Part shown: positions 56,841 to 61,055 of the stretch, in pieces | How positions within the stretch are numbered: the first letter of the stretch is position 1 | How the letters are laid out: each line of letters opens with the position of its first letter | NCBI GenBank assembly: GCA_009780065.1 | Contig: WRAS01000001.1 | Coordinates: 273,661 to 337,660, forward strand | Length of the DNA: 64,000 nucleotides | Source: Bacillota bacterium | GTDB lineage: Bacteria > Bacillota > Clostridia > Christensenellales > UBA1242 | Direction of reading: 5' to 3' | Program-made: the position numbers and the translations under genes | The notes under the pieces: generated by a model | Told to the model about the DNA's origin: nothing | Database searches by the model: none | Seen by the model: the letters and a program-made list of their open reading frames with translations, nothing else

Positions 56841-57434
56841 TCAATACCACGTTGTCAATTCATCATGCAGATAGGCAAGTGAAGAAGTATTATTCTTTCG
56901 CCAACCTTTTTGTACGCGCTGTTCAATTTTTCCTGCACTGTTAACCGCACGTGTTATATCTACATCATTCTTAATGACCGAGTTCTTTATATCAATAATT
57001 TGTGGAATATTTTGTCTGAAATCCACAATGTAAAAGGGAACCTGATTCAATTTAACGTCTTTGCCATAACGCAATACATATGCCAATGCCCAATGTGTGT
57101 TATCAATGAAAATTTTGCCGCTGGATCCTATGACAACCTTTATTGGTCTGGACTCTGTTGAATACGTCATGCTTTTGATTCGTTCGACTTCGAACGACAA
57201 TCTTTCATTATCATCTTTCCACTTGCCACGATGCGTACCGAACAGAACATAATCATACCCGACATCTTTACCTTGTTTAATTATATCTTTGTTTTTTTGT
57301 GTGCTGTCATATGCAACGTGTTTAGTTTCCAGATCCAGCAATTTCATCCTCGCTACTGCAAAGATACCCCCTGGAAAAAGATTTGAGTTCGTGTCTATCA
57401 TACAGATTTGGACACTGCTCATAGTTATTGTCAT
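56841..57434 (-). CDS. Hypothetical protein, ParB/Srx-like motif
   Basis: RPIKVVIG…IFIDNTHWALA…VPFYIVD resembles PIxV…iiDGhHR..A…vp; start codon uncertain. Confidence 0.5.
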   Translation of the reverse strand: MTITMSSVQICMIDTNSNLFPGGIFAVARMKLLDLETKHVAYDSTQKNKDIIKQGKDVGYDYVLFGTHRGKWKDDNERLSFEVERIKSMTYSTESRPIKVVIGSSGKIFIDNTHWALAYVLRYGKDVKLNQVPFYIVDFRQNIPQIIDIKNSVIKNDVDITRAVNSAGKIEQRVQKGWRKNNTSSLAYLHDELTTWY

Positions 57435-58356
57435 ATGTTGTTGCTTTATCTTGTTCGTACAGCGTGGTGGATAAATACTTCATTCCACCATCCGGTAAAA
57501 TAGTTACGATAACGGACTCAGTTTTCGGGTCAACTATGCTTTTATTTTTAATAGCCTCCAATGCTACATGCATCGCGGCCCCACTGGACATACCCACCAG
57601 CAACCCTATATTTGCCAATTTACGTGACATGGCAAAGGCATCCTCGTCTTTTATATAAATTCTTTCATCCGCACCTGTTGCACTGTAAATTTGTGGCACG
57701 ATTGCTTCGGTCATATTTTTAAGTCCTTGAATTTTGTGCTTTGGAAACGGTTGGGCTTCGATAATTTTGATATTCGGATTTAATTGTTTTAATCGCTTTC
57801 CGACCCCCATAATTGTTCCGCCTGTACCCACCGCGCAGACAAAGTGTGTAATCTTACCCTTTGTTTGTTTCCAAATTTCGTTCGCAGTTGCACGATGTGA
57901 CAATGGATTATTTGGATTAGAGAATTGGTCGGGGTAGTAATACATATCTGGATTTTGGGAAACCATTTCGCGTGCCTTGCGTATTGCACCGTCTGTTCCG
58001 AATTCACCTGGTGTGAAAACAATTTTCGCACCATAAGCTTGTATTAATTTCTGTCTTTCGACTGAAACCGCGTCACTCATCACCAGAACAACTTTGTAAC
58101 CCAACGCTGCCCCAATCAGGGCAACCGCAATCCCTGTATTGCCACTGGTGGCTTCGATAATCGTTTTGTCCTTTGTTAAGTTGCCGCTCTTAATCGCGTC
58201 CAGAATCATGGCTTTAACGGGGCGGTCTTTTATGCTGCCGCCTGGATTATCACCCTCTGTCTTTGCATAAATCTTTACATTTGGATTGTTTCCAAGTTGG
58301 CTTAAATCCAACATCCGTGTATTACCCACCATGTCCAGTATATTCTTGTAAATCAT
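57322..58356 (-). CDS. cysM: Cysteine synthase (CysM/CysK family)
   Basis: NPGGSIKDR, EATSGNTG, DQFSNPNN, VGTGGT, HKIQG, GMSSGAA, PDGGMKYLST. Confidence 0.92.
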   Translation of the reverse strand: MIYKNILDMVGNTRMLDLSQLGNNPNVKIYAKTEGDNPGGSIKDRPVKAMILDAIKSGNLTKDKTIIEATSGNTGIAVALIGAALGYKVVLVMSDAVSVERQKLIQAYGAKIVFTPGEFGTDGAIRKAREMVSQNPDMYYYPDQFSNPNNPLSHRATANEIWKQTKGKITHFVCAVGTGGTIMGVGKRLKQLNPNIKIIEAQPFPKHKIQGLKNMTEAIVPQIYSATGADERIYIKDEDAFAMSRKLANIGLLVGMSSGAAMHVALEAIKNKSIVDPKTESVIVTILPDGGMKYLSTTLYEQDKATTYDNNYEQCPNLYDRHELKSFSRGYLCSSEDEIAGSGN

Positions 58357-58384
58357 TTTAATTTCTCCTCATATAATTCCTAAC

Positions 58385-58428
58385 AAAAAACTGCCCACCC
58401 TTTATGTACGCATTTGGGTTTGGCAGTT
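58385..58428 (-). terminator. Attenuator terminator upstream of cysM
   Basis: Minus strand AACTGCCAAACCC…GGGTGGGCAG-TTTTTT. Confidence 0.8.
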
Positions 58429-58453
58429 CAATAATCAATTGCAATAAATTTGA

Positions 58454-58534
58454 CTAGGCGGACATGCAACACAAGAACGCATCTTTCCCAAATGCACCTT
58501 GGCAGCAACAACATACAAAACTTGTGATGTCCAT
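58454..58534 (-). CDS. Poly-Cys leader peptide (26 aa)
   Basis: MDITSFVCCCCQGAFGKDAFLCCMSA*; starts 6 nt after TTGACA-18-TATAAT. Confidence 0.85.
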   Translation of the reverse strand: MDITSFVCCCCQGAFGKDAFLCCMSA

Positions 58535-58595
58535 AAATATATTATATTAAACCAGCAGTAACTTTGTCAAGTCTTTAATTTAAACAACTATTTGC

Positions 58596-58628
58596 ACACC
58601 TGAAAAGGGTCAAACATACCATGAATTA
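58596..58628 (+). promoter_or_regulatory. SigmaK-like sporulation promoter
   Basis: AC-N17-CATACCAT; CATAnCATGAATTA shared with 8977-8990. Confidence 0.55.
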
Positions 58629-58649
58629 GACCACAAAGGAGGTATAAAA

Positions 58650-59084
58650 ATGAGTGAAAAAATTAAAAACACATCTTTCGTTGACATTGAATTATGCGAG
58701 GATACAGTAACGGTAACCAGTCAAGAAGTCGAGGTAAGCGAACTTCAACTCTCCGTTGTTAAAACTGCAATGTGTCCGTTCGCAGTTGTTGGCGGTACAA
58801 TTAAATTTTGTACAACGATAAAAAATACGACGGGATTTACAATACATGAACTTGTCTTCCGTGATGAATTAGACGAGAATCTTTCATATGTAGAAGGATC
58901 TTTCACAGTTAATGGTGGCCAAGAAGATGATCCAACTATAATTGGTCGTGTAATAACTTTTCCAATGGAAAAAATCGAAGATGACGAAGAAATCGTAATA
59001 TGTTTCAAAGTTCGCGTGAATTCATGGCCGACAGGGGATGACGACAATGGCGACGAGAATGGAGATGATAACGGAGACGAATAA
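58650..59084 (+). CDS. Single DUF11-like domain protein with acidic tail
   Basis: LSVVKTA…VVGGTIKFCTTIKN…FRDEL…LSYVEGSFTVNG…ICFKVRV; AAGGAGGT RBS. Confidence 0.8.
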   Translation: MSEKIKNTSFVDIELCEDTVTVTSQEVEVSELQLSVVKTAMCPFAVVGGTIKFCTTIKNTTGFTIHELVFRDELDENLSYVEGSFTVNGGQEDDPTIIGRVITFPMEKIEDDEEIVICFKVRVNSWPTGDDDNGDENGDDNGDE

Positions 59085-59085
59085 A

Positions 59086-59754
59086 ATGGCAAAAATTACC
59101 AATGTGTCAAGTGTCAGTTTTTCCAGAATGCAATGTGATTGTGACGAGATAAACGCACGTCTAGATGAACTAGAAGCGAGTCAATGCGATTGCAAGGCCA
59201 TTGACGAGCGTCTTACAACAATAGAAAATGACATAACAGAAATTCGTACAGAGATTACTAATGCAACAAACGAAATATGGAATACAATCAACAGGATAGA
59301 GCAGTTTGTATTCCTTTCCGATGTTACCATATATTCGGCCGCTAATCCTTTTTATGGTGCAACGATTTCTACGATAAATGCGGGACACACATATAACTTT
59401 TGGGGTTCTGGTGCGTTAACATCCAGCGTAACACTTACAAATAACACAATATATTATTTAGCGCGCTCCGGGCAGCCTACAACAACTCCACCTGCTTTGC
59501 CGAACAGAATACCCGTCCTGGAATGGTATCAGGGTTCCTCTACAATTGGAACAATGTTTATCGAAGGCCCGCCAACAATTATTTCTCCCGGACCACCACC
59601 TGTAACAACACCTGGTCCAGTAATTGCAACTGTGCCTTTGCGTTTTGATGAAACTGGGATATGGTTTCGTACTGATTATAATATTGGCACAATAGCCGTC
59701 GGCTCGGTTTTCAAATTTACCCAGGCGCTGATTTTGGTGGACACAACAAGTTAA
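59086..59754 (+). CDS. Probable spore-surface protein: Cys-containing coiled coil plus beta head with Pro/Thr loops
   Basis: MAKITNVSS…QCDC..I..RL twice, heptad region, then beta-rich domain. Confidence 0.65.
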   Translation: MAKITNVSSVSFSRMQCDCDEINARLDELEASQCDCKAIDERLTTIENDITEIRTEITNATNEIWNTINRIEQFVFLSDVTIYSAANPFYGATISTINAGHTYNFWGSGALTSSVTLTNNTIYYLARSGQPTTTPPALPNRIPVLEWYQGSSTIGTMFIEGPPTIISPGPPPVTTPGPVIATVPLRFDETGIWFRTDYNIGTIAVGSVFKFTQALILVDTTS

Positions 59755-59774: not shown

Positions 59775-60044
59775 ATGAAAAATAATAATTGCAATACTTT
59801 AATGCAAACAAATGCAATTTGTTATGTCACCAATCAATCGTCCATCGAAATTAACAATTGCTGGGAAAGTTATATAATTAAAAGCAACAAAGTAAAAGTA
59901 AAAATAACACACCCACAGCCAGAATGTTGCATTTGTATGTGTTGTTGTGTTTGCTGTTGTTTGTGGTGCACACTTGGGCGTATTATAAATCTTATTTGTC
60001 ATGATCACATTTGCACGGATTCACATGCACATTGCAATGTTTGA
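59775..60044 (+). CDS. Small Cys-rich protein
   Basis: VTNQSSI…IKSNKVKV then CCICMCCCVCCC; GAGG RBS. Confidence 0.7.
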   Translation: MKNNNCNTLMQTNAICYVTNQSSIEINNCWESYIIKSNKVKVKITHPQPECCICMCCCVCCCLWCTLGRIINLICHDHICTDSHAHCNV

Positions 60045-60906
60045 TTCGCAAATCTGAATCAGACTCCAACTTATTTTGAACCGCTTGGGCTATGTCATGA
60101 CCCTGTTCCACCGAAAGTTTTCCGTCCACATGTATATCCAAATCAACCAAGATTGCACTACCGAATAAACGCGTTCTGATCTCATCTACTTTGATGACCC
60201 CATTAACGCTGGATGCTGTTTCAACAATTTTGTCTTCGTCGTTTTTGTCGGCTGCGCGGTCAATCAGTTGATTGATCGCGGGTTTAAGAATATTAAAAGC
60301 AACCCTTAGTATAAATACAGCAACGACCAGAACCGCAATACTTTCTACGATATTGGTTCCTATAAAGGCGCTGCACACCAAACCAATTAAAACAGCAATC
60401 GAGGTCAAACTGTCCGCACGGCTGTGCCAGGCGTCGGCCTTTAACATCTGGGATCGCGTTCTTTTTGCATGGTGCATTCCATACCAAAACAAAGCCTCCT
60501 TGACCACAATCGTAAGAATCACCACACCAATCAAATACCAATTCAATTCTGAATAATCTGGTGATATTATCCCTTGAATCCCTTGCCAAATAAATAATCC
60601 CGCAACACCTGAAAGAAACAGGGCAAAGAACATAACCATCAACGATTCAATTTTTTCGTGACCATAGTTATGTTTCTTGTCACGTTTTGGGCTGGAAATA
60701 AATACTGCAATAATAACAAACAACTGTGTGATTAAATCCGCCGCCGAATGCACCCCATCGGAAATTACCGCCAGATTTCCAAAAATCGAACCTACAATTA
60801 CTTTTGATGAAACCAATATAATGTTTGCAAATATTCCGATAATCGCAACCTTTAGCACTATTTTCGCGACGCCAGATTGTTGAGACATGTAATCTTGTTT
60901 ATCCAT
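59992..60906 (-). CDS. Cation diffusion facilitator (CDF) transporter
   Basis: SDGVHSAAD, HNYGHEKIE, ADAWHSRAD, HVNP; GGAGG RBS before MDKQD. Confidence 0.95.
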   Translation of the reverse strand: MDKQDYMSQQSGVAKIVLKVAIIGIFANIILVSSKVIVGSIFGNLAVISDGVHSAADLITQLFVIIAVFISSPKRDKKHNYGHEKIESLMVMFFALFLSGVAGLFIWQGIQGIISPDYSELNWYLIGVVILTIVVKEALFWYGMHHAKRTRSQMLKADAWHSRADSLTSIAVLIGLVCSAFIGTNIVESIAVLVVAVFILRVAFNILKPAINQLIDRAADKNDEDKIVETASSVNGVIKVDEIRTRLFGSAILVDLDIHVDGKLSVEQGHDIAQAVQNKLESDSDLRIKHCNVHVNPCKCDHDK

Positions 60907-60930
60907 AAAAAGACCTCCTTGTATGTATAC

Positions 60931-61055
60931 AAAAACACCTGCGGAACTCTGAAAGACGTGTCTTCGTCTATCTGTCCCACAGGTGTTCAAAATTTCACCC
61001 GCTGTCGCTTTTGCAACCCGACTGCGATGCCAAGCATCCGCCTGTTCAGTTTTGT
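60931..61055 (-). ncRNA. NiCo (czcD) riboswitch with terminator
   Basis: AAACTGAACAGGC…GTCGGG…CAGCGG…CTGTGGGACAG four-way-junction pattern; ACACCTGTGGGAC/GTTCCGCAGGTGT-TTTT terminator overlaps the aptamer 3' end; upstream of a CDF gene. Confidence 0.85.

Follow-up and report, generated by a model that had tools for sequence, protein, structure and literature searches.

Upstream of a cysteine synthase gene in an uncultured, small-genome member of the Bacillota lies a leader of some 150 nucleotides (nt), in which a perfect promoter, a short cysteine-rich open reading frame (ORF) and an intrinsic terminator follow one another on the minus strand. The leader is part of a 64,000-nt stretch of DNA (the window; C1:273661-337660 of genome G000), and we regard it, with a probability of about three in four, as a cysteine-specific, ribosome-mediated transcription attenuator of the leaderless, terminator type. 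An earlier interpretation drawn from the letters of the window (the sequence-only reading) had proposed such an attenuator. It fares well in comparison with a second species: the terminator and the competing antiterminator are both conserved there, and the antiterminator is the consensus structure of the two leaders. Comparative data indicate that the element is real and conserved but rare. Taken one at a time, the parts are no more than moderately unusual, and the case draws its weight from their conjunction together with their conservation in the second species.

Architecture of the leader

The promoter comprises a −35 hexamer TTGACA (58565..58570) and a −10 hexamer TATAAT (58541..58546) separated by an 18-nt spacer. 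It matches 12/12 positions in a promoter scan and is the sole perfect site among 12 promoter-like sites in 57000-59200, where shuffled sequence leads one to expect 6.6 ± 2.6; perfect promoters with spacers of 16 to 18 nt number 27 in the whole of G000. Six nucleotides (ATATTT) separate the −10 box from an ATG at 58534, which opens a leader ORF of 26 codons and a TAG stop at 58456-58454 (MDITSFVCCCCQGAFGKDAFLCCMSA; 58454..58534). Six of these codons specify cysteine (23%, against 0.99% in the long ORFs of G000), and they fall into two clusters: codons 8–11, TGT TGT TGC TGC (58502..58513), and codons 22–23, TGT TGC (58466..58471).

A 27-nt spacer leads from the leader stop to the terminator hairpin (58385..58426), which consists of a stem at 58426-58391 (CTGCC-AA-ACCC, a 15-nt loop, and GGGT-G-GGCAG) followed by six T residues at 58390-58385. 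By RNAfold the isolated hairpin has −13.7 kcal/mol, which the flanks bring to −17.2 kcal/mol, and termination is predicted; a simple terminator scan, which permits loops of 3–8 nt only, reports no terminator at the leader. On the 3′ side of the T-run follow GT, the box TAGGAATTATA (58372..58382), a single T, the Shine–Dalgarno (SD) sequence GAGGAG of the cysteine synthase gene (58365..58370), AAATTAAA, and then the ATG at 58356. Only 28 nt lie between the T-run and this start codon, and there is therefore no room for a separate promoter of the gene. The upstream flanking genes are on the plus strand, and hence the terminator serves no other gene. The sequence-only reading had listed the promoter, ATG, peptide, terminator and ribosome-binding site, and each lies where it was placed, correct to the base.

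A homologous leader in a second species

A search with the CysM protein against 41 relatives yielded 30 cys-gene loci that were scanned for ORFs with a run of cysteine codons. The sole further case is found in a genome of the same genus (G004, locus L015), and it retains the full order of parts: TTGACA-17-TATACT, 10 nt, ATG, the ORF MDNFTRKTVCCCTTIAFGKGAICCIVCK, a stop codon, a 28-nt spacer, and a terminator composed of CTGTAACC, a 16-nt loop, GGTTACAG and seven T residues. After the T-run come TAGGAATTATA, 31 extra nucleotides, AGGAGAAATTA and an ATG. The block AGGAGAAATTA, which includes the SD sequence, is identical in both species, as is the TAGGAATTATA box adjoining the T-run (L015 ~1447-1457), although its flanks differ. 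Within G000, 34 matches to this box with at most one mismatch reveal no apparent regulon, and two of them form hairpin-like palindromes without a long ORF downstream. The gene that follows in G004 (L015 1495-2910) is not an orthologue of that in the window: it encodes a 471-residue fusion of a PALP domain and a hexapeptide acetyltransferase, i.e., CysK-CysE, the PALP domain of which is 45% identical to the window enzyme, and the two genes lie in different neighbourhoods.

The two ORFs differ by indels of 6 nt and 3 nt, which keep the frame, and share 13 identical residues (M, D, V, C, C, C, A, F, G, K, A, C, C). For six of them the codons differ at the third position only (GAC/GAT, TGT/TGC, TGC/TGT, GGG/GGA, GCG/GCA, and TGC/TGT), and none of the five aligned cysteine positions has been lost, three wobble changes notwithstanding. 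Start and stop codons occupy matching positions, with 27–28 nt from stop to terminator in both leaders. The pair bears the sequence signature of a translated frame, in which the cysteine codons, and not the nucleotide sequence, have been kept; the poly-cysteine ORF of the sequence-only reading is accordingly conserved in frame, its cysteine run included.

Not all of the leader varies in this way. The two strands of the predicted antiterminator, GCATTTGG and CCAAATGC, are invariant between the species, the former encoding alanine–phenylalanine–glycine, and two pairs of the terminator stem show compensatory replacement of both partners (C-G to U-A, C-G to A-U). Blocks common to both leaders are CTTGACAAA, ATGGA, GTATGTTGYTG, TGCATTTGGRAAAGRTGC, and GAACTG, followed by CCAAATGC, AGGGT, the T-run, TAGGAATTATA and AGGAGAAATTA. 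Coding DNA of G000 and G004 is just 64–76% identical and blastn returns no match in the leader, which argues that these blocks are not neutral.

Terminator, antiterminator and a hairpin within the ORF

A perfect 9-nt complementarity between the sequence just after the four cysteine codons and the 5′ arm and loop of the terminator had been claimed, and it is exact: GCATTTGGG (58495-58487) pairs throughout with CCCAAATGC (58418-58410). Counting two G·U pairs, the helix extends to 11 bp in the window; that of G004 has 10 bp. Its 5′ strand (strand A, GTGCATTTGGG; 58487..58497) is formed by codons 13–16 of the ORF, and its 3′ strand (strand C, CCCAAATGCGT; 58408..58418) overlaps the inner stem and loop of the terminator. 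Numbered from the A of the leader ATG, this antiterminator (A:C) joins nt 38/40-48 to nt 117-125/127 in the window and nt 44-53 to nt 122-131 in G004, and the terminators span nt 109-144 and nt 116-147, respectively. Antiterminator and terminator are predicted to be mutually exclusive, and both are kept in G004. When RNAalifold is given the two leaders, the consensus helix is A:C; of its 10 pairs, eight are invariant, one shows a one-sided change, and one a two-sided change. Further pairing may extend the window antiterminator, namely between GCGUUC (nt 55-60) and GAAC-U-GC (nt 106-112) at the foot of the terminator, and cluster 2 is predicted to form an apical helix with the spacer (nt 65-70/92-97 in the window; nt 64-73/99-108 in G004).

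The sequence-only reading overlooked a hairpin, here termed P1, that folding predicts within the ORF and that would sequester the antiterminator strand, thereby acting as an anti-antiterminator 'lock'. In the window, P1 spans nt 28-70 of the transcript (58465..58507) with a predicted energy of −14.6 kcal/mol. In its upper part, GCAUUU of strand A pairs with AGAUGC, and a GGGAA loop leaves the GGG of strand A exposed. The base is made by the two cysteine clusters: UGCUGCCAAGG, which contains the last two codons of cluster 1, pairs with GUUCUUGUGUUGCA, which includes cluster 2. The strand of P1 that serves as a decoy (strand B) carries the same strand-A-pairing sequence as strand C, namely ATGCGT in the window and TGCAA in G004. 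P1 is also predicted in G004 (nt 24-82, −19.5 kcal/mol), with the different stems GUACAAC/GUUGUAU and AUUGCAUUU/AGGUGCAAU. The minimum free energy fold of the 184-nt leader leaves the cysteine synthase SD sequence GAGGAG unpaired, together with its flanks.

Predicted position of the stalled ribosome

The effect of a ribosome was modelled by protecting 28 nt around each possible A-site codon, from −15 to +12 of its first base, and folding the remainder. With codons 22 and 23 of the window in the A site, the probability of A:C in the full-length leader is 0.90 and 0.82, with 0.10 and 0.17 for the terminator; codon 24 of G004 gives 0.86 and 0.12. Positions at which strand A is covered favour termination: codons 11–21 of the window give an antiterminator probability of about 0 and a terminator probability of 0.90–0.98, and codons 12–23 of G004 give about 0 and 0.99. 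The second cluster is thermodynamically decisive in this model because the ribosome stalled upon it also covers the decoy strand and leaves strand A free behind it. That the second pair of cysteine codons is the decisive stall site is nonetheless a suggestion of the model to which we would give slightly less than even odds.

Proposed mechanism

From the leader's sequence and its predicted folds we infer the start of transcription, translation of the ORF, stalling, the cluster that decides, and the response to cysteine. The transcript would begin with the A of the ATG or a neighbouring base, and a 70S ribosome would translate the 26-codon leader while RNA polymerase advances towards the terminator, which lies 28 nt ahead of the start codon of the cysteine synthase. 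Ample Cys-tRNA would let the ribosome clear the ORF, and P1 would form behind it, holding strand A (GUGCAUUUGGG); with P1 formed, the terminator would fold and transcription would stop. When Cys-tRNA is scarce, the ribosome would stall on a cysteine cluster and melt the base of P1. As this base would be a lock composed of the two clusters, a stall on either would open it, and a stall on codons 22–23 would cover the decoy strand B in addition. Strand A, freed just outside the ribosome, could then pair with strand C (CCCAAAUGCGU) in the inner stem and loop of the terminator, assisted by pairing of GCGUUC with GAAC-U-GC at the terminator foot. The terminator would be unable to nucleate, and polymerase would enter the gene.

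A more ambitious model may be built on this, which we offer tentatively and consider rather doubtful as a whole. It describes a two-checkpoint attenuator of reverse topology, in which the two clusters pair as a lock, a stall on the second is decisive, and the strand freed behind the ribosome reaches a terminator some 70 nt away; together with the leaders ending in …NCCCK of family f42 (below), it would belong to a hitherto unrecognised family of cysteine attenuators accompanying a cysM gene of patchy distribution, in a Firmicute lineage whose mRNAs are normally leaderless.

A predicted leaderless start

No SD sequence precedes the leader ATG, and any translation of the ORF must therefore be leaderless, with a predicted start of transcription at or adjoining the A of the ATG. 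Such a start is credible because promoter-proximal ATGs are common in G000. Gene starts were taken as the first ATG of ORFs of at least 150 residues, and a good promoter as a −10 hexamer with at least 5/6 matches, a −35 hexamer with at least 4/6, and a spacer of 16–18 nt. A good promoter ends 5–8 nt before 111 of the 1084 gene starts, as compared with 18 of 7010 internal ATGs, and gaps of 5, 6, 7, and 8 nt account for 39, 44, 17, and 11 of these cases. The mode is 5–6 nt, and the leader's gap of 6 nt is the modal spacing of this genome-wide signal. An SD-like motif is present at just 265 of the 1084 first ATGs. Leaderless gene starts appear, on these counts, to be very common in G000, which is unusual for a Firmicute. 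The leaderless start put forward by the sequence-only reading is consistent with the spacing and with the lack of an SD sequence. The longer gap of G004, 10 nt, corresponds to a predicted 5′ untranslated region (UTR) of 3–4 nt.

Parallel leaders in family f42

An order-wide survey with CysM covered 401 genomes, and the best 28 new loci, ranking above roughly 230 further matches, were scanned. One new leader was found among these 28, in G353 (family f42, genus g144): TTGACA-17-TAGTAT, 7 nt, ATG and the ORF MKNSTFAIVNCCCNI, followed by a strong hairpin and an AU-rich terminator with eight T residues. Some 60 nt further on begins a CysM orthologue with 53% identity to that of the window. The G353 ORF appears to be leaderless. 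Two more species of g144 possess ORFs MDKITSIINCCCK and MGKTISIFNCCRK in front of the same hairpin and terminator; these have a 5′ UTR with an SD sequence (AAGGA and AAAGGA, respectively) and are not leaderless. The three leaders (L244 2429-2554, minus strand; L245 1223-1335, minus strand; L246 1372-1483, plus strand) have ORFs of 13–15 codons ending in …NCC(C/R)K or …NCCCNI, and terminators with T-runs of 8–9. Poly-cysteine upstream ORFs before cys genes, for which a search of relatives had been suggested, are hence present in G004 and in three f42 genomes.

Three of the six genomes of g144 carry the leader, and these are exactly the three with this CysM orthologue; a 71%-identical CysM orthologue in another genus is without a leader. 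A second model, R2, gave six matches at E up to 0.1 in 82 f42 genomes, three of them real. The sequence CTTGACA is common to the window, G004 and all three f42 leaders, and the N-terminal halves of the f42 ORFs resemble the window leader (MD.ITS…CCC), whilst the DNA aligns poorly; common descent of the two leader types is only a possibility. Mask folding of the three f42 leaders yielded no antiterminator at any ribosome position. The sequences show, in any event, that a short ORF with a cysteine run and an intrinsic terminator before a cysM-type gene is an arrangement that recurs in the order.

Evidence against and alternative explanations

A number of observations weigh against the attenuator. 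Cysteine content by itself is not rare: 29 of 8124 ATG ORFs of 15–40 codons in G000 contain at least six cysteines. A perfect complement of at least 9 nt between the ORF and the 5′ half of the terminator arises in 87 of 5000 dinucleotide shuffles of the window ORF, and the 10-nt complement of G004 in 44 of 5000, which makes A:C, taken alone, only moderately unlikely. This helix overlaps the terminator stem proper by 3 nt in the window and by 2 nt in G004, with the remainder of strand C in the loop. The whole leader folds no better than shuffled sequence (z = −0.46; 62 of 200 shuffles fold equally well or better), and with two distinct sequences known of this leader type, the counts of covariation are small. 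The other three genomes of the genus give no match to a covariance model (R1) built from the two leaders, and the regions upstream of cys genes in G001 and G003 contain no cysteine ORF. A cysE gene, finally, is not detected in G000, which is 91.5% complete (best score 23.6 bits against a cut-off of 210.65), and the substrate of the cysteine synthase is for this reason unclear.

The folding model itself raises two further difficulties. With the first cluster in the A site, the terminator prevails in the full-length leader, at 0.97–0.98 for codons 8–11 of the window and 0.98–0.99 for codons 10–12 of G004. Before the 3′ arm of the terminator has been made, the probability of A:C is 1.00, 1.00, 0.88, and 0.02 for codons 8, 9, 10, and 11 of the window and 0.97 for codons 10–11 of G004; a ribosome with codon 10 in the A site reaches the first base of GCATTTGGG, and one codon further on, four of its nine bases are covered. 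Given that the terminator dominates at equilibrium, a stall on the first cluster could act only kinetically. The sequence-only reading, in which a stalled ribosome frees the antiterminator, thus holds in the model for codons 22–23 and fails at equilibrium for the run of four cysteine codons. In addition, the G004 leader prefers the antiterminator when naked (0.82) and when a ribosome sits on its stop codon (0.79), and the default 'off' state must depend on P1 forming first and persisting, i.e., on kinetics.

The alternative that survives best, though we consider it unlikely, is that a factor other than the ribosome, for instance a protein, a small ligand or uncharged tRNA, sets the terminator/antiterminator switch, with the ORF incidental to it. 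The alternative structures exist without translation, the TAGGAATTATA box after the terminator is conserved, and some other factor may act on the f42 leaders, for which no antiterminator is predicted. An incidental ORF is difficult to reconcile with indels in multiples of three, with cysteine codons kept through wobble changes, with start and stop codons held at matching positions 27–28 nt from the terminator, or with the SD sequence at the right distance before the cysteine ORF of two f42 leaders. The leader is, moreover, short and mostly coding, and an Rfam scan of 57800-59200 at E up to 10 found no family within it (only two chance snoRNA matches on the opposite strand) and no match to the T-box (RF00230). 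Across the G000 assembly, 49 first-look T-box candidates were scored and none passed, and Rfam at its gathering threshold found two tRNAs only, and no T-box, in 20 of the 30 cys loci of relatives.

Less probable again is that the ORF is a small gene for a cysteine-rich peptide, whether metal- or redox-binding or secreted, with the cysteine synthase expressed by leaky read-through and free of control by cysteine. The AFGK motif and the cysteine positions are conserved between the two species, and the genome has other real-looking cysteine-rich small ORFs (one of 89 residues at 59775-60044 and one of 40 residues resembling metallothionein). The codons for alanine–phenylalanine–glycine, GCATTTGG, coincide precisely, however, with the antiterminator strand complementary to the terminator, and the partner strand is just as invariant. 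The element also precedes two different kinds of cysteine synthase in two neighbourhoods, shorter cysteine ORFs (13–15 codons) stand likewise in front of CysM orthologues in other genomes, and the 28 nt before the gene are too short for a promoter of its own. A chance conjunction of a strong promoter, a spurious cysteine-rich ORF and a hairpin with a T-run is very improbable, for although such ORFs (29 of 8124) and perfect promoters (27) do occur and the fold z-score is non-significant, all parts are conserved in G004 where blastn sees no similarity in the leader, and the arrangement has its parallel in f42.

Relation to known systems

Leader-peptide attenuators are classically those of the enterobacterial trp, his, leu, thr, and pheA operons. 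The attenuator proposed here resembles them in having a short ORF rich in codons for the end product and an intrinsic terminator before the first structural gene, as well as in its predicted set of mutually exclusive anti-antiterminator, antiterminator and terminator hairpins, which would be read by the position of a ribosome. It differs in the amino acid concerned, in an ORF predicted to lie without an SD sequence at the very 5′ end of the transcript, and in its small-genome Firmicute host. In the window the regulatory codons form two clusters that pair in the base of the first hairpin, and the best-supported stall would leave the freed antiterminator strand behind the ribosome and not, as in trp-type attenuators, ahead of it. 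The classical systems are summarised in 10.1101/834739.

That preprint describes leaderless polycysteine small ORFs of mycobacteria (Ms5788A), for which the described passages report translational control, with the poly-cysteine tract pairing with the downstream SD region and no intrinsic terminator (10.1101/834739). The window leader shares with Ms5788A, as there described, a consecutive-cysteine ORF that is leaderless (here by prediction) and upstream of cysteine-biosynthesis genes, and, in the proposed mechanism, the sensing of charged tRNA-Cys through ribosome transit. Unlike Ms5788A, it possesses a T-run terminator and an antiterminator, its downstream SD sequence is unpaired in the predicted fold, and its phylum is different. 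In Rhodobacterales, the uORFC-8-2 motif upstream of cysS combines tandem cysteine codons with a terminator stem and U-run, and ribosome-mediated attenuation has been proposed (PMC8632094). The likeness is one of description: uORFC-8-2 regulates cysteinyl-tRNA synthetase in Alphaproteobacteria, has two cysteine codons in its first stem, and is not called leaderless in the passages that describe it. Candidate leader ORFs with cysteine runs near the stop codon have likewise been noted before cys and cbs operons of Actinobacteria, where the account consulted reports no conserved terminator hairpins and suggests Rho (PMC1262725). From that account, these candidates resemble the short f42 leaders, with the difference that clear intrinsic terminators follow the ORFs described here.

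Firmicutes usually control cys genes through the Cys T-box, the S-box or CymR. The regulated function is the same in the window, and the T-box senses the same quantity, the charging of tRNA-Cys; here, unlike in a T-box, the sensing device would be a translated ORF, and no T-box is found in the leader or in G000. The histidine leader before hisS paralogues in bacilli, as far as it is described in PMC2965389, is an earlier case of a 'regular' leader peptide taking the place of a T-box in Firmicutes. Judged by titles and the opening lines of abstracts, literature searches turned up no terminator-bearing cysteine leader peptide from this phylum. The 2020 mycobacterial preprint states, in the portion cited, that attenuation for cysteine mediated by an upstream ORF (uORF) was previously undescribed (10.1101/834739), and the sole terminator-type cysteine uORF found in print, going by its described passages, is that controlling cysS in Alphaproteobacteria (PMC8632094).

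If the present reading is true, a leaderless, terminator-type cysteine attenuator in Firmicutes would fill the cysteine gap in leader-peptide attenuation, in a phylum that is expected to use T-boxes, S-boxes or CymR and in a genome where no T-box was found. It would also add a case in which a leaderless ORF loaded by 70S ribosomes drives a transcriptional switch, and supply a compact building block of some 150 nt for control that responds to cysteine. The host belongs to an uncultured small-genome lineage with wider features of interest, namely very frequent apparent leaderless starts and no full-length PolC in the 13 genomes examined.

The putatively regulated gene and its host

The gene downstream of the leader (57322..58356, minus strand) encodes a pyridoxal phosphate (PLP)-dependent enzyme of the CysK/CysM family of 344 residues, assigned by profile searches. 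Its PALP domain scores 227 bits, and it falls below the NCBIfam cut-offs for TIGR01136 cysKM (329 against 344.15), TIGR01138 cysM (313.2 against 394.2) and TIGR01139 cysK (291.8 against 350.95). These scores place the enzyme clearly within the cysteine synthase family yet below equivalog level; of the name cysM given to the gene by the sequence-only reading, the family assignment stands and the specific designation falls short. The closest database relatives, including P0002-P0005, are metagenome proteins of 63–71% identity, and a broader set of homologues of about 57–60% identity is annotated as 'cysteine synthase family protein' or 'cysteine synthase B' (JGI). The ORF has a tail of about 40 residues beyond the PALP domain, and this tail overlaps by 113 nt (57322-57434), in another frame, the next ORF (56841-57434; 197 residues, no family match). 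Either the end of the cysteine synthase gene or the start of the 197-residue ORF is uncertain.

G000 comprises 1.2 Mb in 18 contigs with 40% G+C. Two DNA sequencing runs with the label termite gut metagenome (X1, X2) contain the stretch and may be where it comes from; no RNA run was listed among those that contain it. It has cysS, and lpxC was not found in it. Full-length PolC (TIGR01405) was not found in any of the 13 genomes examined of the small-genome family f1, G000 included, and is present at more than 1400 bits in seven of the eight other families of the order; the family appears, from these profile searches, to have lost PolC. As those seven families carry bona fide PolC, the order is Firmicute, in agreement with the host proposed by the sequence-only reading. 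A DnaE-like ORF of 1218 residues is present in G000.

Searches for further copies and minor observations

The R1 model was run against 151 genomes of the family and gave five matches at E up to 1, of which only those in G000 and G004 are real; the other three were dismissed for lack of a cysteine ORF. The pattern GCATTTGGNAAAGN{50,80}CCAAATGC matched 57 stretches in genome_contigs and 106 in metagenome_contigs, two of which were flagged and the rest attributed to chance. The match at L164, on a metagenome contig, is identical to the G004 leader. Another, L136 (…MLFCCWAFGK…), was dismissed as having no T-run after it, a judgement made from the printed tail alone. The leader type of the window and G004 is, on the strength of these searches, rare.

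Small ORFs containing three consecutive cysteines number 63 among 30,869 in G000. Eleven candidates were checked, and only the leader and C6:44971 lie outside ORFs of at least 90 residues; the look-alikes C7:44831 and C4:84077 were dismissed as lying inside coding sequence, and C6:44971 as part of a repeated intergenic element without a cys gene. That element, of about 130 nt, is present in two nearly identical copies (C3:20790-20900 and C6:44930-45060). It has a GC-rich hairpin and TATAAT at its start, contains …TTTGTTTGTTGCTGTC…, ends at an A-run, and may represent a small repeat or else a gene for a small RNA.

The 89-residue cysteine-rich ORF of the window (59775-60044, plus strand) directly follows the stop codon of the preceding gene and has an SD sequence, GAGAGGA. 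It contains 19 cysteines (…ECCICMCCCVCCCLWC…HDHICTDSHAHC), has no Pfam match, and at its end overlaps a convergent CDF cation-efflux gene (59992-60990, minus strand) at the latter's 3′ end. Its product may be a small metal-binding protein. The 40-residue metallothionein-like ORF, MEKERICQCPECKCDKCPCTPQECKCTPECKCGCDCKKQG, with 12 cysteines, lies outside the window on the minus strand of C1.

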